The notes below the pieces were generated by a model. It saw only the letters and a program-made list of their open reading frames with translations, was not told the origin of the DNA and did not search any database. 30,552 nt of DNA from an uncultured Candidatus Saccharibacteria bacterium. GTDB taxonomy: Bacteria; Patescibacteriota; Minisyncoccia; Phycocordibacterales; UBA9973. Position numbers and translations under genes: made by a program. Below are positions 1,764 to 29,762 of the stretch, piece after piece (position 1 is the first letter of the stretch; each line of letters starts with the position of its first letter). The stretch lies in assembly GCA_964349965.1 (NCBI GenBank), contig CAYGIL010000001.1:1-30552 (forward strand), in the 5' to 3' direction.

Positions 1764-1934
1764 TCAAACGATGTCTTGTGCCTTTTTTTGACGAACTTTG
1801 GCTGCGTCTGCAGCCTTTTCATCATTTTCTTTAGCGGTCTGAGCTTCCTCAGCCGCCAGCTTCGCAACCTGCTCACGACGAATCTCCTCGAGATTCGCCA
1901 GAGCACGACGTATATGTTTTTTATTGATTTTCAC
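1764..1934 (-). CDS. 56-aa charged, helical microprotein (not in ORF track)
   Basis: AAGGAGGGG precedes GTG at 1934. Translation MKINKKHIRRALANLEEIRREQVAKLAAEEAQTAKENDEKAADAAKVRQKKAQDIV, TGA at 1764, then a terminator-like hairpin. Confidence 0.6.
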   Translation of the reverse strand: MKINKKHIRRALANLEEIRREQVAKLAAEEAQTAKENDEKAADAAKVRQKKAQDIV

Positions 1935-2115
1935 TTCCGCCCCCTCCTTGAGGGCTAAAAGGCTAAAATAACCTTTATCTAAGGTAAGAAAAACATATCA
2001 AAAGAGAGAATGCAAGGGAATTAAACACTTTAGATTTTACAATCTTTAAATTATCAGTTTCAAACGACCGTCTATATTTGCCGAGTAACATCTTAAAAAA
2101 TTCGAATATTTATTC

Positions 2116-2670
2116 TTATTTATAACTTGGTTTGATTTCTTCCTGGCCTGACACGTGACTTGAAATACGTGCGAGGGAGTATAGAAGGCTCGAGAGGCGG
2201 TTGAGGTATGCGAGTGTTCCCCCACTTACTGTCACTTTCCCTTCTTCGTGTACTGCAATCACGCGGCGTTCTGCGCGACGCACGAGCGTACGAGCAAAAT
2301 CAAACAGCGCGCCGATCTCGGTCGCACCGCTAATAAAAAATGTTTGAATTGGCGGAAGGATTTTCTCGATACTGTCTACAATATCCTCAACTTTTTTTAT
2401 TTTGTCCTCAGTGATACCCATCTCAGCTCCAGCGACTTCGGCTTGCACGATAAATAAGTTCTGCTGCACTTCGAGCATAAGCTCTGCGCTATTTACTTTT
2501 TCAAAAATATCAAAAGAGAGATCGTGCGTTTTCGCACGGATAATTCCGAGATATGAGTTGAATTCATCGAGTGCGCCGAGTGCTTCGGCAACGTTTGAGC
2601 TTTTGGAGATGCGCTGATCACAGCCGAAGGTCTTGGTCATACCATCATCACCTTTTCTTGTGTAAAGCAT
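2116..2670 (-). CDS. pduO: Cob(I)alamin adenosyltransferase, PduO type
   Basis: YTRKGDDG, ALGALDEFNS, ARTLVRRAERR and YLNRLSSLLY motifs. Confidence 0.92.
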   Translation of the reverse strand: MLYTRKGDDGMTKTFGCDQRISKSSNVAEALGALDEFNSYLGIIRAKTHDLSFDIFEKVNSAELMLEVQQNLFIVQAEVAGAEMGITEDKIKKVEDIVDSIEKILPPIQTFFISGATEIGALFDFARTLVRRAERRVIAVHEEGKVTVSGGTLAYLNRLSSLLYSLARISSHVSGQEEIKPSYK

Positions 2671-2697
2671 AGAAGTATGTCTAAGAAAGAGTTTGAC

Positions 2698-5013
2698 TTA
2701 GATTTCACAGACACCCGAAACACATGCAAACTCTTTGGCACCAGTCGTATTGTCACTTGCTTCGTATTGAGAGAGCTTTGAGAAATCTATTTTCCCGATT
2801 GCCTTTGCCCTTTTTTCGTATTCTTCTTTGCTGATCGCTTCGTACGGTGCGAGCTGATACACGTGCTCAGATCGAGGCAGGAATGACATACCACCAACGA
2901 AATCCCAATTTTCATACACAAAGTTTCCCACCGCGAGCCACTCATCCGGACCGACATAAATCGTCGCTGAAGGATTGTGCTCTACGAAATGCTCTTTGAG
3001 CCTCTTCCATTCTTTCATGAGATCGAGCGCTGAAACTTCATCTTTGAAGATCGCACCTTCGGGAGCCTTTACCGGGAACTCGAGAACAAACGTCGTCGCA
3101 GTTTCTGCTGACTGACCCACTTCTGGCAAGCAAGGTACACCCTGATCCTTTGCCATTTTCATGAGCGTATCAGTATGCGAAATACGAACACGTCGAATAA
3201 AGTATTTTGAAAACCAAGGGTGCATACCGGAACCGACGCCGAGGAGCTGTCCGGAGTTACCGTGCGGCTTTACGCAAGTAATCGCTGTTGATTGATTGAT
3301 ACCGAAACGCTTTGCATACTTTTTATTCACTTCGATCGCTTCGAGACGAAGCATATCGAGGACCTTGTCATCGCGAATAGTCGGATTGTCGTAGTAGCCT
3401 GTAAGTGACACACCGAGGAGTCGCTCCTCTTCACAGTTCTTCTTCCACTCTTTAGAAAGATATCCGAAATTTGTAAGGGTAGACTGATACGTACCGAGGA
3501 GAGTTGCAAGTTCCATCTTTCGCTTGAGCGTCTGTACCGTATCACTCGGACGGATCACGATACTGGTGAGATTACAAAACTGCTTTGAACGCAAATAAAT
3601 TTCACCGCATGGGTTAAGCCCGATTTGACGCTCGTCTTTGATCGCAGCCCAGCGACGTGCAGGCACTTGCTTCTCGAGTCCACCGCGGTTAAATATTCCT
3701 CGCTCACCGGACTTTGATTTTACAAGCGCAGTCCATTCATCCAAAAATTCTTCAGCACTTGGCTTTGCGTGATACACTGCGGAATTATTTGCCATACTAC
3801 GCTGTGGCTCCGTTAGATAAAACTGACCCTTCTTAGCATCACGCATTTCCGAATCTTCGAGCTCTGATACTGAGATAAGTGCACTACGTCGTACGCCTCC
3901 TGCAACTACAATCATACCGATCTGACAGATGAGGTCATGCATGTCGAGGTTGGAAAGTCTCCTGCCTTGCTTGGACAAAATCTTTCTGCGTGCGAAATCC
4001 ATGAGGTCCATCAAGGGCTGCGGACCAGAAGCACGTCCACCCGCAGTTTCGAGTCGAGCACCAGCCGGACGGATCTGTGAATAGTCAAAAGTCACATCAT
4101 GACCACCAAACCACTTTTCGAGTCCATGCACAAATGCATCTGCCCAGCCTTCCTTGCTGTCTTTGACGACATACACACTAGGCTTTTCTTTTACTTGTTT
4201 CTTGATCTGCGGGAATTGCTGTACATTTTCCCATTCCACTGCAAAGCCGAGTCCAGCACCACACATAGATACATACATGATCTCACCTAGGTCCTGAAAC
4301 GAAGTTGGGGCTATATATGAACAGTTGTATGCCCATACGTTTGAATTTCGGCATGCCTTGCCCGCAGACCAGAAAAGCCGCATCGAAGGGCAAATCTCTT
4401 GATTTAATATTGCCTGTCTTAAATCTTCGTACTCCTTCTTTGTGAGCTTGTCACCTAGGTTCTCTCTCATATATTCCATATAGCGGTCTATCGTCTCAAT
4501 CCAAGTTTCCCGCCTACCGAGTTCTGGCACCCAACGAGCATAAAATTGGTAAAAGATATATTCTGCATACGGACTCACAAAATACTTACTACTTTCTTCC
4601 ACTGCCTTACGGACATCTTCACGAACTGGGCCAAAGGTTGCTCGGAGCTCTGAACGCTTGTTTCGGTACAAGATGTACTTCTTGGCAGTCTCAGTATAAT
4701 GCTTCTTCATGAGCTCTTTCTCCACCATATCCTGTACGAGTTCCACTGTAGGCAGAAAAACTGCCTTTTTATGCTTTGTTACTATTTCCTCACGTAGATC
4801 GAGGAGAGACTTAAACACGCTATTTGCCACTACCTGAGACTCACCTTCACCTCCTTCGCTCGTTACCTCAAACGCCTTTCGAACTGCGTTTACAATAATA
4901 TCCAAATCAAATGGTACTACCTCACCTGTACGTTTCCGTATCGACTTTATCTTTGCGAGCTCATTCTTTGAGAATTTTTCGACTGTTTTTAATTTTTGTG
5001 TTTTTGTTTTCAT
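2698..5013 (-). CDS. nrdJ: Class II (adenosylcobalamin-dependent) ribonucleotide reductase with N-terminal ATP-cone
   Basis: ATP-cone IRKRTGEVVPFD; AYNCSY, VAGGVRRSALIS, RSMANNS, NPCGEI, QFCNLT, ERLLGVSLTG; C-terminal CVSGVCEI; PduO gene adjacent and no beta-subunit gene adjacent. Confidence 0.9.
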   Translation of the reverse strand: MKTKTQKLKTVEKFSKNELAKIKSIRKRTGEVVPFDLDIIVNAVRKAFEVTSEGGEGESQVVANSVFKSLLDLREEIVTKHKKAVFLPTVELVQDMVEKELMKKHYTETAKKYILYRNKRSELRATFGPVREDVRKAVEESSKYFVSPYAEYIFYQFYARWVPELGRRETWIETIDRYMEYMRENLGDKLTKKEYEDLRQAILNQEICPSMRLFWSAGKACRNSNVWAYNCSYIAPTSFQDLGEIMYVSMCGAGLGFAVEWENVQQFPQIKKQVKEKPSVYVVKDSKEGWADAFVHGLEKWFGGHDVTFDYSQIRPAGARLETAGGRASGPQPLMDLMDFARRKILSKQGRRLSNLDMHDLICQIGMIVVAGGVRRSALISVSELEDSEMRDAKKGQFYLTEPQRSMANNSAVYHAKPSAEEFLDEWTALVKSKSGERGIFNRGGLEKQVPARRWAAIKDERQIGLNPCGEIYLRSKQFCNLTSIVIRPSDTVQTLKRKMELATLLGTYQSTLTNFGYLSKEWKKNCEEERLLGVSLTGYYDNPTIRDDKVLDMLRLEAIEVNKKYAKRFGINQSTAITCVKPHGNSGQLLGVGSGMHPWFSKYFIRRVRISHTDTLMKMAKDQGVPCLPEVGQSAETATTFVLEFPVKAPEGAIFKDEVSALDLMKEWKRLKEHFVEHNPSATIYVGPDEWLAVGNFVYENWDFVGGMSFLPRSEHVYQLAPYEAISKEEYEKRAKAIGKIDFSKLSQYEASDNTTGAKEFACVSGVCEI

Positions 5014-5018
5014 TTGAT

Positions 5019-5564
5019 TTAGATTGTGTTAGGTTCGAGGTTGATAATAGAAGTAACAGGTTCGGTGCGTCGCTTACGTACAAGGAAATTATAAATTCCC
5101 GGAGACAAGACTGCAGCAAAAGTTACATTCCCAAGTAAATGCATCGCGGTAAACGGTATTTGACCAACAAGTGCAGCCATAAACGGCTGATCAAAGAAAA
5201 GCGGACCAGTCAAAAGCCCTGTGACTCCGTCAAAAAAGAGTGTGGCAACCAATGCAAAGCCCACAAACTGACCCCGTGTAGCCTTTCGATTCTTAAAATA
5301 ACACCCTGAAGCGATACCGATGATTCCGTATGAAAATGAAGTGAGTACTGTCCAGAGCCCTATAGTGCCCGTTACTGCGTCATATATAAGTATGCTCAAA
5401 AATCCGAAAAGAAACCCAGCAAAAGCCCCGTATGCCTTACCAAATGGCATCGCCGCGGTCATAATCGGCTCTATGTTTGGTGCTCGGAAGGGTATAAGCC
5501 GAATAAAAAGACATGCCATCAAGCCTAATACAAAATGAAAATAATTTTTGTTATCTTGTGTCAT
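5019..5564 (-). CDS. ECF transporter S component, CbrT-like (putative cobalamin uptake)
   Basis: Multi-TM protein with RLIPFRAPNIEP...G..AG...G.....YD...G.IGLWT, resembling the CbrT PNVxP...GxGPWT pattern; upstream of nrdJ-pduO. The track ATG at 5618 overlaps a TATAAT box, so ATG 5564 is preferred. Confidence 0.7.
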   Translation of the reverse strand: MTQDNKNYFHFVLGLMACLFIRLIPFRAPNIEPIMTAAMPFGKAYGAFAGFLFGFLSILIYDAVTGTIGLWTVLTSFSYGIIGIASGCYFKNRKATRGQFVGFALVATLFFDGVTGLLTGPLFFDQPFMAALVGQIPFTAMHLLGNVTFAAVLSPGIYNFLVRKRRTEPVTSIINLEPNTI

Positions 5565-5757
5565 AAAAGGTTTTAAAAATTTTAAACTTTCCAAACAGCG
5601 CAAAGGTCGTCCGTTCATTATACAGGAAAAGTAGTAAAAATTAGACAGTGGAAAACTAAAAATTAGAGTAATTTTCGAAGCAGAAAACAGTCCAAAAAAA
5701 ATGTCAAAAAAGTCCGGTTTTCGGCCATATATAATAGCGTATTTTTATATTAACTTG

Positions 5758-5831
5758 TCCGTCCTCTTGGATTCGAACCAAGGACCCCAGAGGTATAAGC
5801 TCTGTGCTCTAACCAACTGAGCTAAGGACGG
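5758..5831 (-). tRNA. tRNA-Ile (anticodon UAU)
   Basis: Cloverleaf CCGTCCT TA GCTC-AGTTGGTTA-GAGC A CAGAG-CTTATAC-CTCTG GGGTC CTTGG-TTCGAAT-CCAAG AGGACGG A; anticodon TAT at 5797-5795; CCA not encoded. Confidence 0.92.
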
Positions 5832-5839
5832 GGTTAGAT

Positions 5840-7756
5840 CTAACTCACTTTCTCTTTTTCCTCTTTCTTTTTTAGCACAATTCCGTGCACAGTCAAAATT
5901 TTCTCGTATTCTTCCTGCTCGAGGGTCTCAACTTCTATAAGTTTTGTAGCGATCGCCTCAAATGCATTTTTGTGTTCACTGATCACTTTTTCTGCAGAAT
6001 TAAACCCATCACGCACGAGTCGGGATACCTCAGCGTCTACTTTCATCGCGATGTCTTCTGAATGTTCTCTCTCGGGTATTTCGGCATACATGCTCCTACC
6101 GCCGTTGTTTGTGAGAGTTATTGGACCGATAACGTCTGACATACCAAACCTCGTTACCATCGCGCGTGCGAGGTTCGTTGCAGCCTGAAGGTCGCTCGAA
6201 GGACCCGTCGTCACGTCACCAAACATAGTTTGCTCGGCAACGTATCCACCGAGAGATACTGCGATATCATCGATAAATTCCTTTTTCGACTGCAATCTGC
6301 GGTCTTCGAGAGGAAGCTTGAGCGTATACCCGCCAGCGCTCCCGCGTGAAATGATCGAAACCTTGTGTACCGGATCTGCGTTTGGAAGTACTGACGCGAC
6401 GAGCGCGTGGCCTGCTTCGTGATATGCAGTGATTTCTTTTTCTTTCTTTGAAAGGAGGTGACTCTTGCGCTCTGGTCCGAGCATGACCTTCTCGATCGCA
6501 CGGATGAGGTCAAACTGAAACACTTTCTTGCGGTTCTCTCGCGCAGCAAGTATCGCACCTTCGTTCATGAGCGAATACAAGTCTGCACCAGAGAATCCCG
6601 GAGTGCGTTCTGCGATAAGTTTTAGATTTACGTCTTCTGCGAGTGGCTTTTTGGTAGCATGAATTTCAAGTATCGCCTCGCGATCTGCACGGTCAGGCAC
6701 ATCAAGCATGACCTTTCGGTCAAAACGTCCCGGACGAACGAGTGCAGGATCAAGCACATCCGGCCTGTTTGTAGCTGCCATCACGATCACTTTATCGTTT
6801 GGCTCAAAGCCATCCATTTCGACAAGTATTTGATTGAGTGTTTGCTCACGTTCGTCGTTCCCTCCGCCAAATCCTCCGCCACGTGTGCGTCCGATCGCGT
6901 CTATCTCATCTACGAATATTATCGCCGGCGCTGCACGTTTGGCCATCTTGAAAAGGTCTCGCACTCTAGACGCCCCGACACCAACGAACATCTCGACAAA
7001 TTCACTACCAGAAAGGTGAAAGAACGGCACACTCGCCTCTCCTGCAACCGCTCGCGCAAGCAAGGTCTTGCCCGTACCCGGTGCACCAGTCAAAATCACA
7101 CCCTTTGGAATTCGTGCTCCGATATCGAGGAATTTCTTTGGACTCTTCAAAAAGTCTACGATCTCTTTGAGTTCCTCTTTTGCTTCTTTACAACCTGCAA
7201 CATCCTTAAAGGTCACGCGGTTATTTTTATCATTAGGGTCCGTAATGCGCGCCTTTGATTGCCCAAAGGAAAGCGCCTGAATACCCGCCCCCTTTACCTG
7301 CCTAGACATATACCAGAAGAAAATCACTATAAAGAGTATTGGAAGTAAAAACGGCAAAACATTCAAAAGCCAAAAACCAAATCCACTTTCATTTTTTATT
7401 TCGATCTCCGTACTAGCGAGTGTCGCTCCCGAAACTTCGTAATTCGAAAGAGTGTCAGAAAGAGACGAACCTGCTTCCTTTTTTGATTTCTTTATTGAGT
7501 CATCTTTATAAGTGATCGTAAGCTCTTCGCCTTCAACAAGGATTTTCTTCACATCGCCTAGAACCACACTCTTGGCAAGCTCTGAGATCGGAATTTCAGG
7601 AATCTTCTTGTTGTCTCCAGAAAAGGCAATATATATCGCAGTAATAAGCATAAAGATAAAAACCGCGCCAACGATACTACTGCCGAATTTTGCACCTTCA
7701 GGCTTCTTTTTAAGCTTACCGTTACTGTCTTTTTTGTTTAGAAATTCAAAGTCCAT
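5840..7756 (-). CDS. ftsH: ATP-dependent zinc metalloprotease FtsH
   Basis: Two TM segments, [37 protein letters not shown]. Start moved to ATG 7756, 6 nt after TG-T-TATAAT. Confidence 0.97.
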
Positions 7757-7805
7757 ATATAAATTATAACATAAAAATAGCGGAAACAAAAGTACCGAAA
7801 AAAAC

Positions 7806-8486
7806 CTAAAAATCAAGAATTATCGGCAAATGGTCTGAGACCTCCACGTCAGGAACAATGAGACTCTTTACCGGTACGTCCTTGCTCACGTATACATAAT
7901 CAGAATAGTACAGTGGGTTATCAGGGAACCTATCCCAGGCAAAATGATTGCGCGTGGTCTTAATATTGAAGTCCTTAACAAGCTCACGGTAACCTTGTTC
8001 GATAAACATATTATAAGTTTTTGTATCTGGTGATACATTTACATCGCCTCCCACTATCTTGAGTCCTTCTTTACCATGCATAAAATCAATGATAGTTTGT
8101 GATTGCAAAAGCCTAGCTGGGTTATCTCCTTTTTCCGGATGGGCCACTCCATGTATATTGCATAGATGCAATGTTTTCCCTCCAAGATCAATCTCGGTGT
8201 ATAGCACGACACCTTTATCAACATCATCCACTAATAAAGTCTCTGTTTTGCTACATCGAAGATTCTTCCTTATAAAGGTCGCCTGAGCAAACTCTTCATT
8301 TGGAGCTTTCTGAATTTCAAAAAAACTATCATAGAAATCGGGGAGAATATTGCGAACCACATTTATACAGTCCCCTTTTACTTCTTGCAAGCAAAAAATG
8401 TCTGTATCATCTTTATGACTTTCAATAAAACGAGATACTTCTTCTAGCATCTTGCCCTTCCAAATATTCAAAAAGATTATTCGCAT
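7806..8486 (-). CDS. Endonuclease/exonuclease/phosphatase (EEP) family protein
   Basis: LNIW, DIFCLQEV, GGDVN, DYVYVS and SDHLPI motifs; start taken at MRIIFLNIW. Confidence 0.88.
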   Translation of the reverse strand: MRIIFLNIWKGKMLEEVSRFIESHKDDTDIFCLQEVKGDCINVVRNILPDFYDSFFEIQKAPNEEFAQATFIRKNLRCSKTETLLVDDVDKGVVLYTEIDLGGKTLHLCNIHGVAHPEKGDNPARLLQSQTIIDFMHGKEGLKIVGGDVNVSPDTKTYNMFIEQGYRELVKDFNIKTTRNHFAWDRFPDNPLYYSDYVYVSKDVPVKSLIVPDVEVSDHLPIILDF

Positions 8487-8582
8487 ACTGCGCTCAAATA
8501 TACCACACTCCAGAAGACTCTGCGAATAAATATTGTGAACATAGTAAATAATTTGTTGTAATTTATTAACGAAGGAGGAAAT

Positions 8583-8681
8583 ATGCAATCTGGCAGACTC
8601 GTAGCGCGTGCCTGGGTGGCAGGCACGTTAATTGGAGGAGTCCTAATGCTCCTCCTCGGAGGGTATGCCCTAACTCATTAG
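8583..8681 (+). CDS. 32-aa hydrophobic microprotein (not in ORF track)
   Basis: GAAGGAGG precedes ATG 8583; MQSGRLVARAWVAGTLIGGVLMLLLGGYALTH; followed by a 14-bp terminator stem. Confidence 0.6.
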   Translation: MQSGRLVARAWVAGTLIGGVLMLLLGGYALTH

Positions 8682-8686
8682 GGCTC

Positions 8687-8728
8687 ATGCTCGGCAGGAT
8701 CTTTAATCCTGCCGAGCATTTACTTTTT
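8687..8728 (+). terminator. Intrinsic terminator
   Basis: ATGCTCGGCAGGAT-CTTTA-ATCCTGCCGAGCAT, perfect 14-bp stem, then TTACTTTTT. Confidence 0.85.
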
Positions 8729-8750
8729 ACCTCTATACTATTTGATTAAA

Positions 8751-8987
8751 CTACAATAAATGCTTTTTAACAAAAGCGTGACCTGAACCATGTTTTAAAT
8801 ATTTTTCAAAACTAAGTGCTTTCGATTTTTCTTTAAAAGCACAATACCAAATTAGTTCATACGTTCCATGCTTAGTGGTTTTTACAGATTTGTCTTTGTG
8901 ACTTTTGAGTCGAGTCTTTAAATCTTCGCTAAATCCTTTATAAAGTTCGCTTGTCGTTTCATTTTGGAGTATATAAACGTAATACAT
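8751..8987 (-). CDS. Small GIY-YIG nuclease family protein
   Basis: YVYIL...LYKGFSEDLKTRLKSH...ALSFEKYLK; ATG 8987 lies 6 nt after TATACT. Confidence 0.88.
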   Translation of the reverse strand: MYYVYILQNETTSELYKGFSEDLKTRLKSHKDKSVKTTKHGTYELIWYCAFKEKSKALSFEKYLKHGSGHAFVKKHLL

Positions 8988-9002
8988 AACAACAGTATAC
9001 TT

Positions 9003-9030
9003 GCCCTGCGTCGCTAAAGCTATGCAGGGC
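9003..9030. repeat. REP-like palindrome upstream of GIY-YIG
   Basis: Minus strand GCCCTGC-ATAGCTTTAGCGAC-GCAGGGC; similar to the in-frame insert in map. Confidence 0.6.
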
Positions 9031-9044
9031 CACCGCTTCAAACC

Positions 9045-9068
9045 AAAAACGCCCAGAAGGGCGCTTTT
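9045..9068 (-). terminator. Likely terminator downstream of tmRNA
   Basis: Minus strand AAAAGCGCCC-TTCT-GGGCGTTTTT. Confidence 0.7.
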
Positions 9069-9117
9069 TTTCACAGTGCTACGCACTGCGAAGCTCGTTT
9101 ACTAACGAGCGAAGCAG

Positions 9118-9518
9118 TGGAGATGGGGGGAAATGAGCCCCCGTGCAAGAGTGTGTTGCCATGACGTCTACATATGTAGCACGCTTATTTGTTTTAAGTC
9201 AGGAAATTCTTAAGCGAGCCAAATATTTCCTAACCGAGCTTCTTTACTTTGGAAAGATGTCGAAGCGGTCACCTCTCCTATCCCGATAATATTATGCCCA
9301 CGCGTATATATCGGAAGTCTATACGGTAGACACCAGTTTAGGCTTACGCGAAAACTGGAGGAAAAGCGAAGTCCGCCTTACCGAAGTAAGGAGAAACTGC
9401 TGCTTTTGCTTTAGCAGTCAATTTTGCAATTAACATTTTGAACAAAGTTTTGCGAGATTGTGTTCATACTCGATATGCATCACGAGCAAGTAGACCCCTG
9501 TCTATGCCTTGCATCCCC
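9118..9518 (-). ncRNA. ssrA: tmRNA
   Basis: 5' GGGGATG pairs with 3' CATCTCC-A with the G3-U70 alanine determinant; T-arm GGGGG/CCCCC; starts 4 nt after the smpB stop; candidate tag frame 9427-9344 ends ...VFA-stop. Confidence 0.9.
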
Positions 9519-9522
9519 ATAA

Positions 9523-9966
9523 TTAATTTTTCAAAGTTCGCCGAAGCTCCCGATCAGTATCACGCTTTTTTATCGTCTCGCGTTTATCAAATTTCTTCTT
9601 GCCTTTCACAAGAGCAAGCTCTAATTTGATCTTCCTACCTTTATTATACACTGAAATAGGCACTATTGTCAAACTTTTATTCTTCTCGCTGCCTGCGAGT
9701 TCGGCGATTTCTTTCTTGGTTAGTAAAAGTTTACGATTTCTGAGTGGATCGTAATTTTTATCGATATTATTTACCTGATACGGAGGAATATTTGAGTTTA
9801 TAAGAAATGCTTCCCCTCCCCGGATAATGATAAACGCACCCTCGAGAGACATGCGTCCACCCCGCACAGACTTTACCTCCGTGCCGAGAAGTTCGATTCC
9901 AGCCTCGTACTTTTCGAGGATTTCATAGTCGAACCGTGCTTTTCTGTTTTCTGCATAATGCCCCAT
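9523..9966 (-). CDS. smpB: SsrA-binding protein
   Basis: NRKARFDYEI...EAGIELLGTEVKS, RKLLL, KKKFDKRETIK. ATG 9966 lies 7 nt after TATTAT (track start 9975 overlaps this box). Confidence 0.97.
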   Translation of the reverse strand: MGHYAENRKARFDYEILEKYEAGIELLGTEVKSVRGGRMSLEGAFIIIRGGEAFLINSNIPPYQVNNIDKNYDPLRNRKLLLTKKEIAELAGSEKNKSLTIVPISVYNKGRKIKLELALVKGKKKFDKRETIKKRDTDRELRRTLKN

Positions 9967-22667: not shown

Positions 22668-22673
22668 TTTTGG

Positions 22674-22982
22674 CTACTTGATGCGTATCTTCTTGCCCTT
22701 GATGCCGAGACGCTTGCGGAGCACTGAGAATGTCTCTAGCTTACCCCCTGTACTTGCCTTCTCTATGGAGATCATGAGAGGCTTGCCGATCCTTGCAGCA
22801 TTGTACCCGCGATTCTTTGGCAACTTCTTTATGATATCACGAAGTTCAGGACGACGCTTGTTACCAGCACGAGCAGTCTGCCCCTTACCGCCACGTCCGG
22901 AAGTCTTGGCATGTTTGCCTCCACGACCGACGAGTCTATCCTTTTTATTCTTATGTGTTCTTTTTAATTCGTGTATTTGCAT
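22674..22982 (-). CDS. rplO: 50S ribosomal protein L15 (short)
   Basis: RLVGRGG...KTSGRGGKGQTARAG, KLPKNRG. Confidence 0.92.
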   Translation of the reverse strand: MQIHELKRTHKNKKDRLVGRGGKHAKTSGRGGKGQTARAGNKRRPELRDIIKKLPKNRGYNAARIGKPLMISIEKASTGGKLETFSVLRKRLGIKGKKIRIK

Positions 22983-22986
22983 ATGT

Positions 22987-23583
22987 TTATTGAGCTATGG
23001 CTGCTTCTCCTATCTCTACAGGCGAGTCTTTCTTCTCTAGAGACTTTGAGTATTTCTTAGAAATTGCATCAAATGCTTTCATGACTGCCTTTGTGTTGTT
23101 CAATTTGTTCTTACTGTTTGAAAGGATCTTACCAGTTATGTCTTTGATACCTGCAAGCTTTGCTATATCCCGAAGCACTGATCCCGCCACGAGTCCGCGT
23201 CCGGAGTTTGGATATATCACAACTGAACAACTCGAATACTTTGCAGAAAGTTCGTGTGGCACAGACATAGTCTTTGTAAGTTTCAAAGTGACCATGTTTT
23301 TCTTTGCGTTTCGAAGTGCTTTGTTGATCGCAAGCGCAGTATCCCCCGCCTTGCCGAGGCCAAAACCAACTGAACCTTTTCTATCTCCTGCAACAAGCGC
23401 AACACTGAATGAGAATCTTCGTCCACCCGCAACCACGCGAGTTACTCGTCGAATAGTCAAAATCTTCTGATCAAATTCAGGCTTTGGTCTCGCAAAAGAA
23501 GATCCGCGTCGGCTACCACCTCTTCGGTCTCCCCCTCCTCTTTGATTTGTTTGTTCTGTTGTTTTTGGTTTTTGAGTATCCAT
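22987..23583 (-). CDS. rpsE: 30S ribosomal protein S5
   Basis: IRRVTRVVAGGRRFSF, VGFGLGKA, GLVAGS. Confidence 0.96.
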   Translation of the reverse strand: MDTQKPKTTEQTNQRGGGDRRGGSRRGSSFARPKPEFDQKILTIRRVTRVVAGGRRFSFSVALVAGDRKGSVGFGLGKAGDTALAINKALRNAKKNMVTLKLTKTMSVPHELSAKYSSCSVVIYPNSGRGLVAGSVLRDIAKLAGIKDITGKILSNSKNKLNNTKAVMKAFDAISKKYSKSLEKKDSPVEIGEAAIAQ

Positions 23584-23589
23584 AAAATA

Positions 23590-23931
23590 TTAAAACTTTA
23601 GACCTGCCTTTCTCGCCTCATCTGCGACTATTTTAATACGTCCAGTGTATCTGAAACCATTGCGGTCAAATACCACAGTTGTAATTTTACTCTTTGTGCA
23701 AACATCCGCGATCATGCTCCCTACTTCCTTTGCTCTCTCAGTCTTAGTACCCTTTGTGATCTTTACGTCACTAGCTTGAGCCAAAGTCTTACCGGTCATG
23801 TCATTGATGACTTGCGCATAGATAAATTTGTTCGAACGGAAAACACTAAGCCGTGGTCTTGCTTCAGTACCGTGCATTTTTACTCGGATCTTCTTCTTCA
23901 ATCGTATTCTCTTGTCTTGTTTCTTTTGCAT
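23590..23931 (-). CDS. rplR: 50S ribosomal protein L18
   Basis: RPRLSVFRSNKFIYAQ, VVFDRNGFRYTGR, AREAG-like ARKAGLKF. Confidence 0.97.
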   Translation of the reverse strand: MQKKQDKRIRLKKKIRVKMHGTEARPRLSVFRSNKFIYAQVINDMTGKTLAQASDVKITKGTKTERAKEVGSMIADVCTKSKITTVVFDRNGFRYTGRIKIVADEARKAGLKF

Positions 23932-23957
23932 AAATTTATATTGAACCTACCGAAATA

Positions 23958-24488
23958 CTATACTGTCTTCTTACCCTGCTTGCGACGTACTACTTCGCCT
24001 TCGTAACGAAAACCTTTTCCCTTGTACGGCTCTGCCTTCTTACGCGCTCGAAGTGCTGCGGTGTAACTACCAACTAATTCTTTATCAATACCTGTGACAG
24101 TGATGTTGTTCTTTTCTGCTGTAACCGTAAGACCTTCTGGAATTGGGACGATAACTGGGTGTGAAAAACCGAGTGCAAATGTAATCTCTTTTCCCTTCAC
24201 ATCAGACTTGAATCCAACACCTTCGAGTATGAGCTTCTTCTGATATGGAGTTTCTACCCCCTGAAGCATGTTCTTGATATGTGAGGCATAAGTACCCCAA
24301 AGTGCCTTTGAAAATTTATCATTTCGCTTGATTTCGAGAGTGATCGTATCAGCTACGTTAATAGTGATATCATTTCGAAAAGTCTTGGTAAGTGTTCCCT
24401 TTGAACCAGTCACAGTAAAAAGACCGTGATCATAACTCACTTTGACTCCAGCCGGTATTTCAATGATTTGTTTACCTATACGTGACAT
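23958..24488 (-). CDS. rplF: 50S ribosomal protein L6
   Basis: MSRIGK, LGFSHP, GIDKELVG, EPYKGKG. Confidence 0.97.
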   Translation of the reverse strand: MSRIGKQIIEIPAGVKVSYDHGLFTVTGSKGTLTKTFRNDITINVADTITLEIKRNDKFSKALWGTYASHIKNMLQGVETPYQKKLILEGVGFKSDVKGKEITFALGFSHPVIVPIPEGLTVTAEKNNITVTGIDKELVGSYTAALRARKKAEPYKGKGFRYEGEVVRRKQGKKTV

Positions 24489-24496
24489 AAAATTAT

Positions 24497-24883
24497 TTAC
24501 CAAATCTGAAAGAGTGCTTCGCCGCCAACTTGCTCCTTTCGTGCATCTTTACCTCCTAAAATTCCCTTTGGTGTCGAAAGCACCAAGAGTCCTGTTCCGT
24601 TTCTGATCTTGTGAATATCTTTTACTCCGAAATACACACGTCGTGACTGCTTTGAAATGCGTTCTACTTGAGTAATGCGGGGCTTTTTGTTCACATATAC
24701 AAGCTTTACCTCTATATAAGGGTGATCATCTCGAGTTCGCTTTGCGATCTCAGATACATATCCTTCTCTCTTTAAACATTCGAGTATCGTGTACTTCATT
24801 TTAGAAGCTGGAAAGATAACAGACTCCTTGCCTGCAAGGTTCCCGTTCTTGATCATGATTAACATGTTTGAAATAGTATCCAT
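24497..24883 (-). CDS. rpsH: 30S ribosomal protein S8
   Basis: DTISNML..IKNG, LKREGYV, RISKQSRRVY, STPKG, VGGE. Confidence 0.96.
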   Translation of the reverse strand: MDTISNMLIMIKNGNLAGKESVIFPASKMKYTILECLKREGYVSEIAKRTRDDHPYIEVKLVYVNKKPRITQVERISKQSRRVYFGVKDIHKIRNGTGLLVLSTPKGILGGKDARKEQVGGEALFQIW

Positions 24884-24891
24884 AAAAGTAT

Positions 24892-25077
24892 TTACCAGCT
24901 AGACTTTCGAACTCCCGGAAGCATTCCTTCGTTTGCAAGCTCACGGAAGCAAATACGACAAAGTCCGAAGTCACGCATAAATGCGTTTCCTCGACCACAG
25001 CGAAAACATCGGTTCTTCGCCCGGGTAGAGAACTTTGGTTTCTTAAGCGCTCGCGCTTTAACTGACGTTTTTGCCAT
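24892..25077 (-). CDS. rpsZ: 30S ribosomal protein S14, type Z (zinc-binding)
   Basis: [15 protein letters not shown]...[10 protein letters not shown]...PGVRKSSW. Confidence 0.96.
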
Positions 25078-25256
25078 AAATAAAAATATCGTAAGATAGA
25101 CGATATCGTATATTTTTTCTTAAAACCCCTATATTTACAAGGCCTTAAGGAGAAATACAGATCAATCTACTTACTCGGATAGTATAGCAAATATTTTATA
25201 AAGAGTCAAATATAAAGGCCCGCGGACTTCCATCGCCAAAGCGACAGTCTGCGGCC

Positions 25257-25394
25257 CTACCTGGGTTGCGGCTGGAGACGATGCTTCGCCTCCAGCTCGT
25301 GCCGAGTGGCCATCCACTCAGTACGAGTTTTAAATTTGCACTTCGTACATCTGTACGTAATGCCAAAAAATATATCCCAAAACCAATCAAACAT
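25257..25394 (-). CDS. 45-aa microprotein with a C2H2 zinc-finger pattern
   Basis: GAGGGGAG lies 8 nt before ATG 25394; C-x2-C-x12-H-x5-H; hairpin after the stop. The track start at 25478 has no RBS. Confidence 0.65.
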   Translation of the reverse strand: MFDWFWDIFFGITYRCTKCKFKTRTEWMATRHELEAKHRLQPQPR

Positions 25395-25498
25395 TTTTCT
25401 AACTCCCCTCAAGCCGAAATAGCTTTCTTGGGGAATCCTCCAAAAATACCCTAATAAATAACTCTCTCTCTCTGTCAAACTTAAGAAAATAAAAAAAT

Positions 25499-25517
25499 AT
25501 CAAGGGTAGTCCTTGAT
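25499..25517 (-). terminator. Intrinsic terminator
   Basis: Minus strand ATCAAGG-ACTAC-CCTTGAT followed by a T-rich run. Confidence 0.65.
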
Positions 25518-25534
25518 GTTTTTTGGTAACATTT

Positions 25535-25786
25535 TTATTCAGTAGACAATTGAAGTCCAATTTTTTCAGCAAGTTGCTTTATCCAAATTTCGTGTCTGTT
25601 TAATTAAGTTTTTACAGCAGCATATTCTAATCCTAAATCACTAATTGATTTTGCAATAGAGTCATTTGAAATGATGAGACCTTGGACAAGCTCTTTCAAA
25701 TAACCTAAGTCAGTCTTGATCTCCTCGACATCTTTTTTAGATGCAAGAACGGTAGTAAGTTTGTTTATGTCTTGATCATTCAACAT
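25535..25786 (-). pseudogene. Small coiled-coil hypothetical with an internal in-frame TAA (25604-25606)
   Basis: Frame continues LNRHEIWIKQLAEKIGLQLSTE after the TAA, up to a stop just before the terminator; TTGACT-18-TACAAT promoter 6 nt before the ATG. Confidence 0.6.
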
Positions 25787-25865
25787 AGCTTAATTGTATC
25801 AAGAAAGCTTACTGCAAGTCAAAGAGTATTTTTGACCACAAAATGTGCTATTTTTACTTACTTTT

Positions 25866-26417
25866 TTATTCTTTCTTAAACGGCACACCGAGGAGTTCGA
25901 AGAATGCCATACCTTCTTTTTTACTTTTTGCTCCGGAGACGAGAGTGATCGAGAGGCCGAATACGTCACGGATGTCTTCGTCTGCTGTTTCCGGGAAGAT
26001 CGTGTGCTCTTTGATACCGATCGTTAGGTTGCCAATAGCATCTACTGCCTTTCGGTTCAAACCTCGGAAGTCCTTTGTTCGAGGAAGTGCGACGTTTAGA
26101 AGCTTTTCGAGGAATGCGTCCATACGCTTGCCTCGGAGAGTGACCATAATACCCACAGGGTCACCCTGACGGATCTTGAAAGACGCTATAGACTTCTTGG
26201 AGCCGCGCTTGCTTGGCTTCTGACCAGTGATCTTTGCGAGGCGATCAGAAACTACATCGTTTTTATTTTTATCTTTCTTCATCATAGTGCCGGTACCGAC
26301 GTTGATCACCACTTTTTGCATTCGTGGTGCAGCCATGACGTTTTTATAATGAAAGTCTCCTTTCATCTTTTCAAACGCCTGCGCTCCTTTTTCTTTTACT
26401 GTAAGATTTTTTGCCAT
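25866..26417 (-). CDS. rplE: 50S ribosomal protein L5
   Basis: KVVINVG, ITGQKP, SIASFKIRQG, VTLRG, LPRTKDFRG, IFPE. Confidence 0.97.
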   Translation of the reverse strand: MAKNLTVKEKGAQAFEKMKGDFHYKNVMAAPRMQKVVINVGTGTMMKKDKNKNDVVSDRLAKITGQKPSKRGSKKSIASFKIRQGDPVGIMVTLRGKRMDAFLEKLLNVALPRTKDFRGLNRKAVDAIGNLTIGIKEHTIFPETADEDIRDVFGLSITLVSGAKSKKEGMAFFELLGVPFKKE

Positions 26418-26421
26418 AAAA

Positions 26422-26640
26422 TTACTTGTTTAGCTTTACATTTGACGCATGGATCGGCATTTCGATCTCCTTGATGCTTCCTTTTTCATTGGTCTTGCGT
26501 GGACGCTGATGCCTCTTGATGATATTTAGTCCCTCTACGACGACTTTGTTGTCACGAGGAAATGCTCGGGTGATCTTACCTTTCTTACCCTTATCCTTAC
26601 CAGCGATGATTATTATATTGTCTCCTTTTTTTAACTTCAT
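26422..26640 (-). CDS. rplX: 50S ribosomal protein L24 (C-terminally short)
   Basis: KKGDNIIIIAGKDKGKKG, VVVEGLN, PIHASNV. Confidence 0.95.
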   Translation of the reverse strand: MKLKKGDNIIIIAGKDKGKKGKITRAFPRDNKVVVEGLNIIKRHQRPRKTNEKGSIKEIEMPIHASNVKLNK

Positions 26641-26660
26641 ATGTTTTTATTACTTTTGTG

Positions 26661-26698
26661 TGCTAGGCAAGACCTAACATGTTAGGTCTTGCCTAGCA
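26661..26698. repeat. Perfect 38-bp palindrome between rplN and rplX
   Basis: TGCTAGGCAAGACCTAACA|TGTTAGGTCTTGCCTAGCA. Confidence 0.9.
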
Positions 26699-26704
26699 AT
26701 CTTA

Positions 26705-27076
26705 CTAAATCACTTCAGGTGCCAAAGAAACAATTTTCTGAAAACCCAACTCGCCGAGTTCGCGCGGGATCGGACCGAATATGCGACCTGCCTTTGGGTC
26801 TTTCTTGCCTTTTTCTAAAAGTACGACTGCATTATCATCAAAGCGAATATACGAACCGTCTTTACGGCGGTATGCAGCACGAGTACGAACAACGACAGCC
26901 TGATGCACGTCCTTCTTCTTAACAGCCTTTCTCGGAGTTGCAACCTTAACTGAGATCACTACGATCTCACCAAGCTTTGCATAACGCTTCTTTGAAGAGC
27001 CTAAAATCTTGAACACTTTTCCGATAGTGCCTCCTGCGTTATCCGTTATTTTTACTAATGTTTCATTTTGTACCAT
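26705..27076 (-). CDS. rplN: 50S ribosomal protein L14
   Basis: DNAG, AVVVRT, YIRFDDNAVV, RIFGPIPREL, SLAPEVI. Confidence 0.97.
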   Translation of the reverse strand: MVQNETLVKITDNAGGTIGKVFKILGSSKKRYAKLGEIVVISVKVATPRKAVKKKDVHQAVVVRTRAAYRRKDGSYIRFDDNAVVLLEKGKKDPKAGRIFGPIPRELGELGFQKIVSLAPEVI

Positions 27077-27103
27077 ATAGCTTTAATTCTATTTGCAATT
27101 ATA

Positions 27104-27358
27104 TTATTTGACTACCACAAATCTTTTGTCTTTTGAGATAGGCTTTGTCTCTCGGATCTCAACTGTTTCGCCTACCTTTGATGCGTTTTCTTCATCATGT
27201 GCCTTGTATTTCTTGCTCACTTTGTAGTACTTGCCGTAGAGTGGATGCTTTACAAAGCGAGTGACGGACACCACGATAGTCTTTGCCATCTTGTCGGATA
27301 CGACTACTCCCTTTAGGGTATTTCCAGCTATTTTCTTGTTGTTTACTTTCTTTTCCAT
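27104..27358 (-). CDS. rpsQ: 30S ribosomal protein S17
   Basis: [34 protein letters not shown]. Confidence 0.97.
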
Positions 27359-27367
27359 AAAATTAAA

Positions 27368-27562
27368 TTATTTTTGCGCATTCATTGCAGTAAGGACGCG
27401 AGCTATCTGTCGACGTGTTGTACCGTACTCCTTTACGTTCTTCTGTCGTGAACCCTCAGATTTGAATCGCATTGTACGGAGACTCTCCGTAAGTGTTGCG
27501 AGATTCTTCTTGAGATCCTCACTCTTCATGCCTTTTAAATTTTCCTTTTTGCTCTTTGCCAT
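27368..27562 (-). CDS. rpmC: 50S ribosomal protein L29
   Basis: LRTMRF, RRQIARVLT; lies between rplP and rpsQ. Confidence 0.92.
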   Translation of the reverse strand: MAKSKKENLKGMKSEDLKKNLATLTESLRTMRFKSEGSRQKNVKEYGTTRRQIARVLTAMNAQK

Positions 27563-27571
27563 ATACTTAAA

Positions 27572-27994
27572 TTACTTATTGCGGGAAATTATGCGAACTT
27601 TTATCGGAAGCTTACTACCTGCCTTTCGAAGTGCTTCGTGCGCAGTCTTCTCATCTACACCGTCAACTTCGAACACGATACGGCCCGGGAATACGTCAAA
27701 GCAATAACCCTGTGGGTCACCCTTACCCTTACCCATGCCCACTTCTGCAGCCTTTGATGTATACGGTCGATCCGGGAATATTCTAATCCAGTATTTACCA
27801 GCCTTTGTGAGTGTACGAGAGATAACCTTTCGAGCTGCTTCAATCTGTTGAGATCGAATACGAGCCTGTGTTTCAGATTTAAGTCCAAAAGAACCAAAAG
27901 AAAGTTTGTTTCCTCGTGTATCAGGCGAAATAGCCTTCTTGTTCATTCGACCAGTTTGCCATTTTCGAAATTTTACTTTTTTCGGTAACAACAT
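27572..27994 (-). CDS. rplP: 50S ribosomal protein L16
   Basis: MLLPKKVKFRK, QIEAAR, WIRIFPD, MGKGKG, KLPIK. Confidence 0.97.
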   Translation of the reverse strand: MLLPKKVKFRKWQTGRMNKKAISPDTRGNKLSFGSFGLKSETQARIRSQQIEAARKVISRTLTKAGKYWIRIFPDRPYTSKAAEVGMGKGKGDPQGYCFDVFPGRIVFEVDGVDEKTAHEALRKAGSKLPIKVRIISRNK

Positions 27995-27998
27995 AAAA

Positions 27999-28682
27999 TT
28001 AATTTATCCCGCCACGGGCAGGCTTCTTATCTGCAAAAATCTTTCCTCGATAAATCCAAACCTTGATACCGATAACACCGTATGAAAGAGTCGCTCGCTC
28101 ACGTTTGAAATCGATATCTGCACGGAAAGTTTGAAGTGGAATTGATCCGCGCTTGAGCTCCTCCGTACGCGCGATCTCAGCACCTCCAAGTCTTCCTGAT
28201 AAAACAATACGTGCACCGAGCACACCTCGAGCGCTCATCACCTTTTCCATGATTGATTTTACAACACGACGGTATGGCATTCGCTTTTCGAGTCCTTCTG
28301 CTACCATGAATGCAACAATTGCTGCATCTGCTTCAGGATTCTGAACTTCTACAATTTCTAGCTTAAAGTCCTCTGGACGAGCGAGCTTCAAGTAGTCCAT
28401 CTTCTTCAAAATATCTTCTTTGAGTTTTGTTGCACCTTCGCCGTTTCGGCCAATGATGAGACCCGGACGTGAAGTCTTTATGATAAATCTAGTTGCCTTT
28501 TGACTACGTTCTATTTCAATACTGGAAACGTACATCCCGCGTAACTTCTTTTCGAGGAATTGACGAACGAGAACATCACCTTTCAAGTACGCGACATACT
28601 TTTTAGGGTCAGCAAACCAACGAGACTTCCAGTCTCGGAGGATTACTAATCTATGTGCGTATGGATGGACTATTTTACTCAT
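27999..28682 (-). CDS. rpsC: 30S ribosomal protein S3
   Basis: KIVHPYAHRL, SRPGLIIG, SGRLGGAEIAR, PLQTFRADID, GIKVWIY. Confidence 0.97.
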   Translation of the reverse strand: MSKIVHPYAHRLVILRDWKSRWFADPKKYVAYLKGDVLVRQFLEKKLRGMYVSSIEIERSQKATRFIIKTSRPGLIIGRNGEGATKLKEDILKKMDYLKLARPEDFKLEIVEVQNPEADAAIVAFMVAEGLEKRMPYRRVVKSIMEKVMSARGVLGARIVLSGRLGGAEIARTEELKRGSIPLQTFRADIDFKRERATLSYGVIGIKVWIYRGKIFADKKPARGGIN

Positions 28683-28687
28683 ATGTT

Positions 28688-29086
28688 TTACTTTGCTGCT
28701 TTAGTTTTAGATTTTATTTCTTTCTTTGTTTCTTTCTTAGGTTTAGTTGCTTGAACAGATACTACCTTTTCACCAAGGATAAGAGTTACATTACTCGTAC
28801 GCTTGTTGATACGGTGTGCTGAGCCCATAGCTGCCGGCATCATACGCTTGAGCGTCACACCCTTGTCTACGCGAAGTTCCTGCACAAAAAGAGTTTCAGC
28901 TTCTTTACCTTGACCTTTTGCATTTGAAACGGCAGATACCAAAAGCTTACGGATCGGTCCACTCGCACGCTTTGCGAGAAAGTCTAACTGTGCGAGAGCA
29001 TCTCCTACATTCTTTCGTCGGATAAGTCCTGCCACAAGGCGAACCTTGCGAGGAGACTGTCTGTAGTTTTTAAGATATGCTTTCAT
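28688..29086 (-). CDS. rplV: 50S ribosomal protein L22
   Basis: RQSPRKVRLVA, VDKG..LKR..P.A.G....I.KRTS. Confidence 0.96.
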   Translation of the reverse strand: MKAYLKNYRQSPRKVRLVAGLIRRKNVGDALAQLDFLAKRASGPIRKLLVSAVSNAKGQGKEAETLFVQELRVDKGVTLKRMMPAAMGSAHRINKRTSNVTLILGEKVVSVQATKPKKETKKEIKSKTKAAK

Positions 29087-29112
29087 GAAAATTATTATAG
29101 TTAACTTGCGGA

Positions 29113-29457
29113 TTATTTCTTAGCATCAGTAGCGGCTGCTGTCGCTGCTTTTGCCTGAGCTATCTCAGCTTCTTTCTTCTTTGCTTCGAGCTCCTTCTGC
29201 ATTTTACCTCCGTGTTTCAAGAATTTCTTAGTAGGAGAGAATTCACCGAGTCTGTGACCTACCATGTCTTCAGTAACAAGTACTTCGATATGAGTCTTGC
29301 CGTTGTATACACCAAATTTGAATCCAAGCATCTCAGGTGAAATGACGCACGCACGATTCCACACCTTTATGAGAGGTGTGTTCAATGGAGTCTTGCCGAG
29401 TACTTTCTTAAGTATTCGTTCATCCACAAATATTCCCTTTTTGATTGATCGTGTCAT
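29113..29457 (-). CDS. rpsS: 30S ribosomal protein S19
   Basis: TRSIKKG.FVD, VYNGK, MVGHRLGEFSPT. Confidence 0.97.
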   Translation of the reverse strand: MTRSIKKGIFVDERILKKVLGKTPLNTPLIKVWNRACVISPEMLGFKFGVYNGKTHIEVLVTEDMVGHRLGEFSPTKKFLKHGGKMQKELEAKKKEAEIAQAKAATAAATDAKK

Positions 29458-29506
29458 GTCGATTTATCTATGCAAGCAAAACGGCTCTCATTCGAGCCTT
29501 GGAACC

Positions 29507-29534
29507 ATACTACCAGATTGCCAAAAAAAGTCAA
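29507..29534 (-). promoter_or_regulatory. Sigma70-type promoter in front of rpsS
   Basis: TTGACT, 16-nt spacer, TAGTAT. Confidence 0.7.
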
Positions 29535-29657
29535 ATTTCCAAAAGAGCATTAAAATTATTAGCTCGAACAAAATCGTGTTGACAAATTAGAAATATGTGG
29601 TCTTTTCATTTAACGTAAATAATTTCGGGGCACAACTGCGCTTGCAGCCATGCCCCG

Positions 29658-29762
29658 TTAGGCAGGTGGAAAGCCTAGAAAAATCCGGAACCATCCACCA
29701 GCCCAATTTGCCCCTCGGCTGACCCGAAGGACAAAAAACAAGAAACGCTCTTTTCTTTGCAT
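29658..29762 (-). CDS. 34-aa microprotein (not in ORF track; the track ORF 29587..29769 is another frame)
   Basis: AAAGGAGGTG precedes ATG 29762; MQRKERFLFFVLRVSRGANWAGGWFRIFLGFPPA; a CGGGGCA...TGCCCCG hairpin starts right after the stop. Confidence 0.5.
   Translation of the reverse strand: MQRKERFLFFVLRVSRGANWAGGWFRIFLGFPPA

Follow-up and report, generated by a model that had tools for sequence, protein, structure and literature searches.

Shine-Dalgarno-led small open reading frames within species-specific hairpin islands of a Parcubacteria-type genome whose congeners lack a 16S anti-Shine-Dalgarno sequence

Loss of the anti-Shine-Dalgarno (anti-SD) sequence of 16S rRNA has been published for a subgroup of Parcubacteria that is also without ribosomal protein uL1 (Tsurumaki, Saito, Tomita, Kanai, RNA 2022; PMC9297842). 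The bacterium considered here shares the traits of that subgroup: seven of seven congeners have 16S genes without CCUCC, uL1 was not found in its assembly, and its native genes do without a Shine-Dalgarno (SD) box. That paper describes the loss of the motif and not a residual set of SD-led small units. Such a set is the subject of this report, which concerns four small loci on a stretch of 30,552 nucleotides (nt), called the window below (contig CAYGIL010000001.1 of assembly GCA_964349965.1). At each of them a purine-rich GGAGG-type tract lies 4-10 nt before the start of a small open reading frame (ORF; spacings of 8, 4, 8 and 6 nt for loci 1 to 4), and a stem-loop follows the frame closely. 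A literature search found no paper linking anti-SD loss to SD-led small units, or describing such cassettes. The window is contig C1 of a Parcubacteria-type assembly of 635 kb in 118 contigs, which has a GC content of 41% and is 89% complete.

Other described elements also invite comparison. Like phage 'morons', which are autonomous promoter-gene-terminator insertions, the units described here are self-contained, lie between genes of conserved clusters (L5/S14, DUF975/S19) and are absent at the same junction in relatives; a moron-like insertion with its own terminator is found at locus 3, where L5 and S14 stand about 790 nt apart here as against 160-225 nt in three congeners. In contrast to morons, the units are not in a prophage, their promoters are putative, they are orphans and they are unusually hairpin-dense. 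Type I toxins (hok, tisB, fst-like) resemble them in having a small hydrophobic peptide (as at locus 2), a folded mRNA with a sequestered ribosome-binding region and a narrow distribution, but loci 1 and 3 are hydrophilic and the host ribosome is seemingly unable to read an SD. Palindromes of the REP, RPE and MITE types are likewise GC-rich and scattered at the gene boundaries of an AT-rich small genome; however, the four islands are unique, and only a small terminator hairpin at 25517-25499 is multi-copy.

Our results suggest that the four loci represent the minority with ORFs in a genome-wide population of hairpin islands that are young, GC-rich, species-specific and inserted at gene boundaries, and that they are self-contained accessory cassettes of high turnover, two of them probable microprotein genes and two possibly RNAs. 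We hold this reading tentatively, at a probability of roughly 0.45. It builds on the observed anatomy, structure, orphan status, motif enrichment and codon bias and on the absence of an anti-SD in congeners; transcription, translation and function of the units would follow from it. The loci are neither the uniform class of translationally gated microprotein genes that an earlier note on this DNA had proposed nor pure noise. Their features are these.

1685..2063, minus strand: unit of locus 1, with a promoter-like box (2063-2034), the frame (1934-1764) and a terminal hairpin (1733-1698) followed by a U-rich tail
1934-1764, minus strand: ORF of locus 1, 56 amino acids (aa), GTG start, AAGGAGG at 1949-1943, spacing 8 nt
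1955-1939, minus strand: 5′ hairpin of locus 1, GCCCUC / loop AAGGA / GGGGGC, containing the AAGGAGG at 1949-1943
8560..8730, plus strand: unit of locus 2, with AAGGAGG at 8572-8578, ATG at 8583 (spacing 4 nt) and the frame 8583-8681
8607-8627, 8634-8655 and 8667-8684, plus strand: internal hairpins of locus 2
8687-8719, plus strand: terminator of locus 2, a stem of 14 base pairs (bp) with a T-run on the plus strand
25215..25480, minus strand: unit of locus 3, with ATG at 25394, a 45-codon frame (25394-25257) that has hairpins within it, and a terminal hairpin (25256-25217)
29615..29813, minus strand: unit of locus 4, with a promoter-like box (29813-29786), ATG at 29762, a 34-codon frame (29762-29658) and a 14-bp hairpin (29657-29626)

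The ORFs and their tracts lie where the earlier note had placed them, but its description of all four tracts as canonical SD boxes fails at locus 3, where the tract is the non-canonical GAGGGGAG (25410-25403, spacing 8 nt), which pairs with an upstream GGAUUCCCC. At locus 4 the tract AAAGGAGGTG (29776-29767, with 6 nt between the GGAGG core and the ATG) pairs with a downstream tract and leaves the ATG in a loop, after which the frame crosses two further hairpins; the 56-codon frame of locus 1 runs through several perfect hairpins. Start codons of all units sit in a short, A-rich and mostly unpaired patch just 3′ of the GGAGG stem, like native start contexts. The stem-loop reported closely 3′ of each ORF is present at all four loci, and those at 8687-8719 and 29657-29626 are the only two of the four that a scan found to be terminator-like. 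With terminator-like ends of their own, the loci do have the character of stand-alone units; promoter-like matches of 10/12 lie upstream of loci 1 and 4 only.

SD boxes and the 3′ end of 16S rRNA

Native genes of this genome avoid SD-like sequence. With genes called by a simple in-house model, an SD-like match of at least 5 nt within 20 nt was found at 5% of 348 long genes with an unambiguous ATG start, compared with 8.7% at internal ATGs, and the duplex energy with an E. coli-type tail was weaker at true starts than at internal ATGs. Between -12 and -1 the leaders of native genes are rich in A and poor in G, coding and intergenic DNA do not differ in their density of SD-like hexamers, and in the window the regions upstream of genes are A/T-rich and contain no GGAGG. 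The remark that the neighbouring genes mostly lack an SD is thus true of the window and of the genome as a whole.

The 16S gene of the window's own organism is not in the assembly, and seven same-genus genomes were used instead. In all seven the gene ends ...GGAAUAAUUCAAUUUGAAA, and CCTCC is absent from the 400 nt that follow helix 44/45; after helix 45 comes GGA(A/U)UAAUUCAA(U/A)UUGAAA in place of GGAUCACCUCCUUA, and the genus-type tail is AAUAAUUCAAUUU. No family match to uL1, bS21 or CsrA was obtained in the 89%-complete assembly. The earlier note had proposed to look for an anti-SD at the 16S 3′ end and had counted a 16S without CCUCC against its own proposal; the anti-SD is absent from every congener that could stand in for this organism, whose ribosome has probably lost the sequence matching SD boxes. 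Since the 16S of the genus is without a CCUCC tail, a GGAGG tract would be unable to recruit the ribosome through SD:anti-SD pairing. Gating of translation by occlusion of the SD is left unsupported because it presupposes an SD-reading ribosome, which is seemingly absent in this lineage. An alternative SD that fits the altered 16S tail was considered and rejected, as 345 native leaders gave -2.9 kcal/mol compared with -3.6 kcal/mol for internal ATG contexts and -3.55 kcal/mol for shuffled tails. CsrA as a reader of GGA in hairpin loops was rejected as well, there being no CsrA match in the genome.

The link between the exact box and small intergenic ORFs nevertheless looks real, and the class appears to be rare without being a product of chance. 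We counted exact AAGGAGG 4-10 nt before the starts of intergenic ORFs of 20-80 aa and compared it with the 34 other permutations of the same letters. In this genome AAGGAGG precedes six starts at five loci, against a permutation mean of 1.41 and a maximum of 4, and with ATG starts only the counts are 4 versus 0.56; the five loci are loci 1, 2 and 4 together with one on contig C20 and one on contig C70. Among ORFs that lie within genes or antisense to them, AAGGAGG was not in excess (5 versus 6.9). Three congeners without an anti-SD, 790 kb together, gave 3 versus 0.26, 1 versus 0.15 and 0 versus 0.03 (4 versus 0.44 in all), with no excess inside genes and with SD depleted or not enriched at native starts. 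The enrichment over background that the earlier note expected was thus observed, both here and in congeners. The GGAGG so enriched may be a donor relic, a structural arm or the site of an unknown reader.

Several units outside the window share these features. The one on C20 has the same 5′ hairpin as locus 1 (CCCUC-type arm, loop AAGGA, GGGGGC arm), and its product is an orphan membrane peptide; besides that of locus 2, two SD-led transmembrane (TM) peptides are located within hairpin islands of this genome, on contigs C3 and C20. Arms of the CCCUC/GAGGG type occur just 5′ of the start at locus 1 and on contig C20, and a looser CCCC/GGGG pairing at locus 3. In the congener G007 (contig C1, minus strand, about 231 kb into the reverse complement), a clean AAAGGAGGTG is followed by an ATG, a 52-aa ORF and a terminator. 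The C-terminal half of that ORF is a C-x-T-P-C repeat (Cys/Thr/Pro), like a precursor of a ribosomally synthesized and post-translationally modified peptide (RiPP).

Hairpin islands, coding signal and orphan status

Hairpins fill each GC-rich unit from end to end, ORFs included, and are not merely its terminator, contrary to the picture of a single hairpin directly behind each ORF. The folding energies on the ORF strand, with z-scores computed against dinucleotide shuffles, are as follows.

Locus 1, 271 nt: -114 kcal/mol, z -8.05
Locus 2, 171 nt: -75.2 kcal/mol, z -5.93
Locus 3, 236 nt: -98 kcal/mol, z -5.72
Locus 4, 176 nt: -79.7 kcal/mol, z -5.81

The opposite strands of loci 1-3 are likewise well folded (z -6.8, -7.4 and -6.8). 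The antisense strand of locus 4 reaches only -48.8 kcal/mol (z -2.74, about -2.7) because many of the pairs are G-U and can be used on the minus strand only, an asymmetry that points to an RNA structured on that strand. The GGAGG tract forms a stem arm in the minimum-energy folds of loci 1, 3 and 4 and is ambiguous in that of locus 2, so that the idea of a complementary tract that could occlude the SD fits loci 1, 3 and 4 and is in doubt for locus 2.

In a 150-nt sliding scan of 165 kb (3308 windows), loci 2, 4 and 3 rank 2nd, 3rd and 14th and locus 1 ranks 52nd. All intergenic DNA of the assembly holds at least 63 islands with z below -3, and the GC content of the islands is above the 41% of the genome. 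Hairpin islands are a general phenomenon of this genome and SD-led ORFs are a minority among them. A search of the four islands against the 635-kb assembly by blastn-short returned only chance 13-17-mers, and a repeated element of the REP/MITE type was rejected, each of the four being unique in the genome. Rfam 15, searched at E up to 1, gave in the window only the tmRNA, the tRNA and two weak matches below threshold, all of them away from the four loci, and at gathering score no family matched any island on nine further contigs. Large intergenic islands with z down to -9.4 and no SD-led ORF of the scanned type lie at C7:6330-6640, C4:6500-6850, C115:551-850 and C53:3001-3400; those on C7 and C4 have no Rfam match, and the one on C7, which has a clean terminator and a promoter of the TTGACA type, resembles an as yet uncatalogued RNA of about 260 nt. 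In the L2-S19 spacer of a congener there is a perfect hairpin of about 30 bp (L012, G006:C20, 5504-5755). Palindromes that stand at gene boundaries and are peculiar to one species seem to be characteristic of the genus. Replication template switching has been described as a way in which new RNA hairpins arise (PMC8794818).

Coding potential was assessed with a codon log-odds model built from the genome's long genes, in which real gene pieces average +0.185 per codon and a null of 628 intergenic ORFs of 30-70 aa averages -0.062 per codon. Locus 1 scores +0.30/aa, in the top 0.3% of the 628 intergenic ORFs, and is the only positive frame of six; locus 2 scores +0.17/aa, in the top 2%, and is unique among its frames. 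Loci 3 and 4 score -0.07/aa each, which equals the null median and is as low as only 0.4% of real gene pieces, and neither has a coding-like frame among its six, although foreign codon usage could mask a real gene at these loci. Only loci 1 and 2 of the four look clearly protein-coding. The proposed microprotein class therefore keeps two members with native-like codon bias and loses two without a coding-like frame.

The predicted peptides differ in character. That of locus 1 is charged, those of loci 1 and 3 are not hydrophobic, that of locus 4 is partly so, and the 32-aa product of locus 2 is hydrophobic and has, by inspection, a single TM-like segment and a basic N-terminus. Locus 3 may encode a C2H2-like zinc-binding peptide, as its spacing C-x2-C-x12-H-x5-H fits the classical C2H2 spacing and a single-sequence AlphaFold2 (AF2) model is beta-beta-alpha (pLDDT 70.6). 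No zf-C2H2 match in Pfam was obtained at E up to 0.1, no Pfam family scored above cut-off, and Foldseek found no match to the model in the PDB.

Peptide homologues were sought for loci 1 and 3, and loci 2 and 4 were searched as DNA. The locus 1 peptide was not found in a six-frame search of 120 congeners and 80 other genomes of the order and has no homologue among 1.84 billion representatives, and the locus 3 peptide has no word-sharing candidate in 5.8 billion proteins. The DNA of locus 3 was not found in 24 congeners, while the adjacent S14 leader was found in many, and the DNA of loci 2 and 4 was not found in 80 congeners. A phage origin of loci 1 and 3 was considered and has no support, since blastn gave no match in 50,697 phage records. 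By these searches all four units are species-specific orphans. The earlier note had counted a lack of frame conservation in relatives against its own proposal, and no locus or peptide was found in the 24-200 relatives searched. Its suggestion that such genes escape gene callers is supported, as the four were missed or only partly called, and the 56-aa product of locus 1 is the sole one on record, as a singleton, by exact look-up in a protein collection.

Weighing the explanations

If the loci are young accessory cassettes, each would consist, in order, of a promoter-like box (weakly evidenced), a 5′ stem that includes the GGAGG, a start in an open A-rich patch, a frame of 32-56 codons laid across 2-4 near-perfect hairpins, and a terminator-like hairpin. 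The enriched box would be the sign that the units belong to a pool of accessory, SD-led small genes with a high turnover. Loci 1 and 2 would be translated orphan microproteins, a charged helical peptide and a single-pass membrane peptide, whose translation begins at the open A-rich patch without the help of an SD, as in native genes, and the hairpins would make the RNA both stable and difficult for the ribosome to load. Judged by their sequence, loci 1 and 2 are probably translated, and locus 3 is possibly translated. For locus 4 a structured RNA of the minus strand is the likelier reading; it would be the 3′ terminus of the DUF975 transcript or else a small RNA insulating the S19 operon.

A number of findings weigh against this reading. 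Only about 6-7 of the 63 islands have a canonical SD, an ATG and a small ORF, about 90% being without an SD-led ORF. The enrichment counts are small, with 10 observed in all, and the enrichment of AAGGAGG would be hard to account for if the ribosome is unable to read GGAGG; the anti-SD loss is in turn deduced from congeners, because the organism's own 16S is unassembled. Stop-free runs of 18-88 codons are present in all six frames of every island, and exceed 30 codons in all but one, so that an ORF alone is not distinctive and composition could be enough to account for the frames of loci 3 and 4. Promoter-like matches are no commoner in the window than in shuffles, and no relative of any unit was found for an analysis of synonymous-biased or compensatory substitutions.

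The alternative that survives best is that all four loci are non-coding. They would then be hairpin RNA arrays, acting as 3′ end, terminator or insulator of the upstream gene or as small RNAs, in which the GGAGG tracts are arms of stems and the ORFs come about because the sequence is rich in GC and poor in stops. This possibility is supported by the extreme fold z-scores, the pairing of GGAGG in the folds of loci 1, 3 and 4, the long stop-free runs in six frames, the stronger folding of the minus strand at locus 4 (-79.7 versus -48.8 kcal/mol) and the lineage's lack of an anti-SD. In addition, three of the four units lie directly 3′ of a same-strand gene, and hairpin arrays without ORFs are also present 3′ of the tmRNA gene and at dozens of other sites. 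We nevertheless regard a wholly non-coding origin as unlikely. The exact AAGGAGG, and not its permutations, is enriched at SD distance before starts, here and in congeners, and the frames of loci 1 and 2 have a gene-like codon bias that is absent from each island's other five. Locus 2, moreover, is oriented opposite to both flanking genes and has its terminator on the plus strand, and neither a structure conserved in relatives nor an Rfam match was found.

A recent horizontal arrival from SD-using donors (a host bacterium, phage or plasmid), in which the ribosome-binding site is a relic and the units are decaying or barely expressed, seems improbable. The species-specific presence of the units, their GC content above that of the genome and the non-native codon scores of loci 3 and 4 would all fit, as would the insert at locus 3, shared with a mobile-associated 83-aa gene bearing a premature stop, and the transposase-bearing L5-S14 insert of another congener (both described below). 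However, the searches revealed no donor: the phage records hold nothing that matches loci 1 and 3, and both searchable peptides (loci 1 and 3) are without a match in billions of proteins. The codon bias of loci 1 and 2 is native-like, and donor composition cannot account for z-scores obtained against dinucleotide shuffles.

We think it similarly improbable that a gene resembling type I toxins is present at locus 2 and perhaps at locus 4, with a small membrane peptide encoded by a folded mRNA held off by structure and an antisense RNA. The 32-aa peptide of locus 2, basic at its N-terminus and with one segment of TM length, would be as expected, and so would the four hairpins in series (z -5.93) and the orphan, patchy distribution of that locus; the two SD-led TM peptides in hairpin islands on contigs C3 and C20 are of the same kind. 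On the other hand, no antisense promoter or antitoxin RNA was identified, no search aimed at an antitoxin RNA having been made, the products of loci 1 and 3 lack hydrophobic character, and there would be no SD-reading ribosome to gate. Least credible of all, and very improbable in our estimation, is a non-canonical reader that lets accessory genes keep using GGAGG, either a cis SD:anti-SD-like mRNA helix in the conserved h26 cleft or a dedicated factor, which would amount to a second, separately controlled channel of microprotein translation.

If the units are expressed, the question becomes what recognises an SD box in bacteria without a ribosomal anti-SD. The answer would bear on translation start in a large part of the candidate phyla radiation, and on how symbionts express fast-turnover membrane, cysteine-rich or regulatory microproteins. 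If they are not expressed, gene callers that reward an SD over-predict small genes in these genomes, and GC-rich hairpin islands are a major unannotated genome component, at about one per 10 kb.

The L5-S14 junction and neighbouring genes

Locus 3 belongs to an insert of about 790 nt that separates L5 from S14. Besides the unit, the insert and the S14 region next to it contain the following.

25535..25786, minus strand: 83-aa gene whose codon 61 is an in-frame TAA, so called as an ORF of 60 aa, without an SD
25822-25793, minus strand: promoter-like box of the 83-aa gene
25517-25499, minus strand: terminator of the 83-aa gene
24892..25215, minus strand: S14 unit, with S14 of the zinc type (25077-24892, 61 aa)

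The 83-aa gene is a conserved Nomurabacteria/Paceibacteria gene with 75 homologues, mostly 73-92% identical, and here the 22 codons past the TAA are still conserved, so the TAA is either a very recent nonsense mutation or is read through. Elsewhere the gene lies beside an rve transposase and a LAGLIDADG gene, and since the insert carries it the L5-S14 junction has evidently taken up mobile DNA; nothing resembling locus 3 was seen in the surroundings of this gene in other genomes. A fourth congener has a different L5-S14 insert of 1.8 kb (L014, G024:C6, 60-1862), in which a 220-aa ORF of IS200/RayT-like transposase type is accompanied by one of 169 aa on the other strand. As far as sequence comparison goes, the L5-S14 junction is an insertion hot spot in the genus. 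The terminator hairpin, ATCAAGG-ACTAC-CCTTGAT with a T-run, is also present on contig C43 of the same assembly and at many congener sites, with up to 7 near-identical copies in one congener. When reads were mapped (DNA contigs, mostly of related organisms), 25227-25893 was the bin of lowest depth in all four runs, and the same mapping gave no informative variants at loci 3 or 4.

The conserved leaders of S14 and S19 lie outside the islands. That of S14 (25078-25215, minus strand) has its own TTGACT-17-TATACT promoter at 25209-25181 and is 69-87% identical in many congeners, the conserved part starting at the end of the locus 3 insert. The flanks of its hairpin (GATCTGT.TTTCTCCTTAAG ... CTTAAGAAAAAATACACGATATC) are conserved across the genus and the inner loop is variable, which makes it a candidate ribosomal-protein autoregulatory leader, with no Rfam match. 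Before S19, a hairpin AAGCTCG-loop-AGGGCTT is found 20-30 nt upstream of the start in 4/4 genomes examined (window 29483-29498, minus strand, and congener loci L011, L012 and L013). It recurs despite a differing upstream gene, which is DUF975 here, L2 in G006 and a divergent 506-aa gene in G003; further upstream of S19 the congeners are unlike one another. The ribosomal cluster is interrupted before S19 in this genome, and S10-L2 are not upstream.

Locus 1 is flanked by RecG and a PduO-type adenosyltransferase; at locus 2 the neighbours are an exo/endonuclease-phosphatase gene and a GIY-YIG gene, with the tmRNA gene adjoining; locus 3 sits between L5 and the zinc-type S14, and locus 4 has the DUF975 gene on one side and S19 with its promoter and leader on the other. 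Directly 3′ of the tmRNA gene and before the 78-aa GIY-YIG gene, four GC-rich hairpins stand in series (9000-9115, minus strand), a segment with the top structure score of the 3308 scanned. A tRNA-Ile with a genomic UAU anticodon lies at 5757-5831 on the minus strand, as called by both ARAGORN and Rfam.

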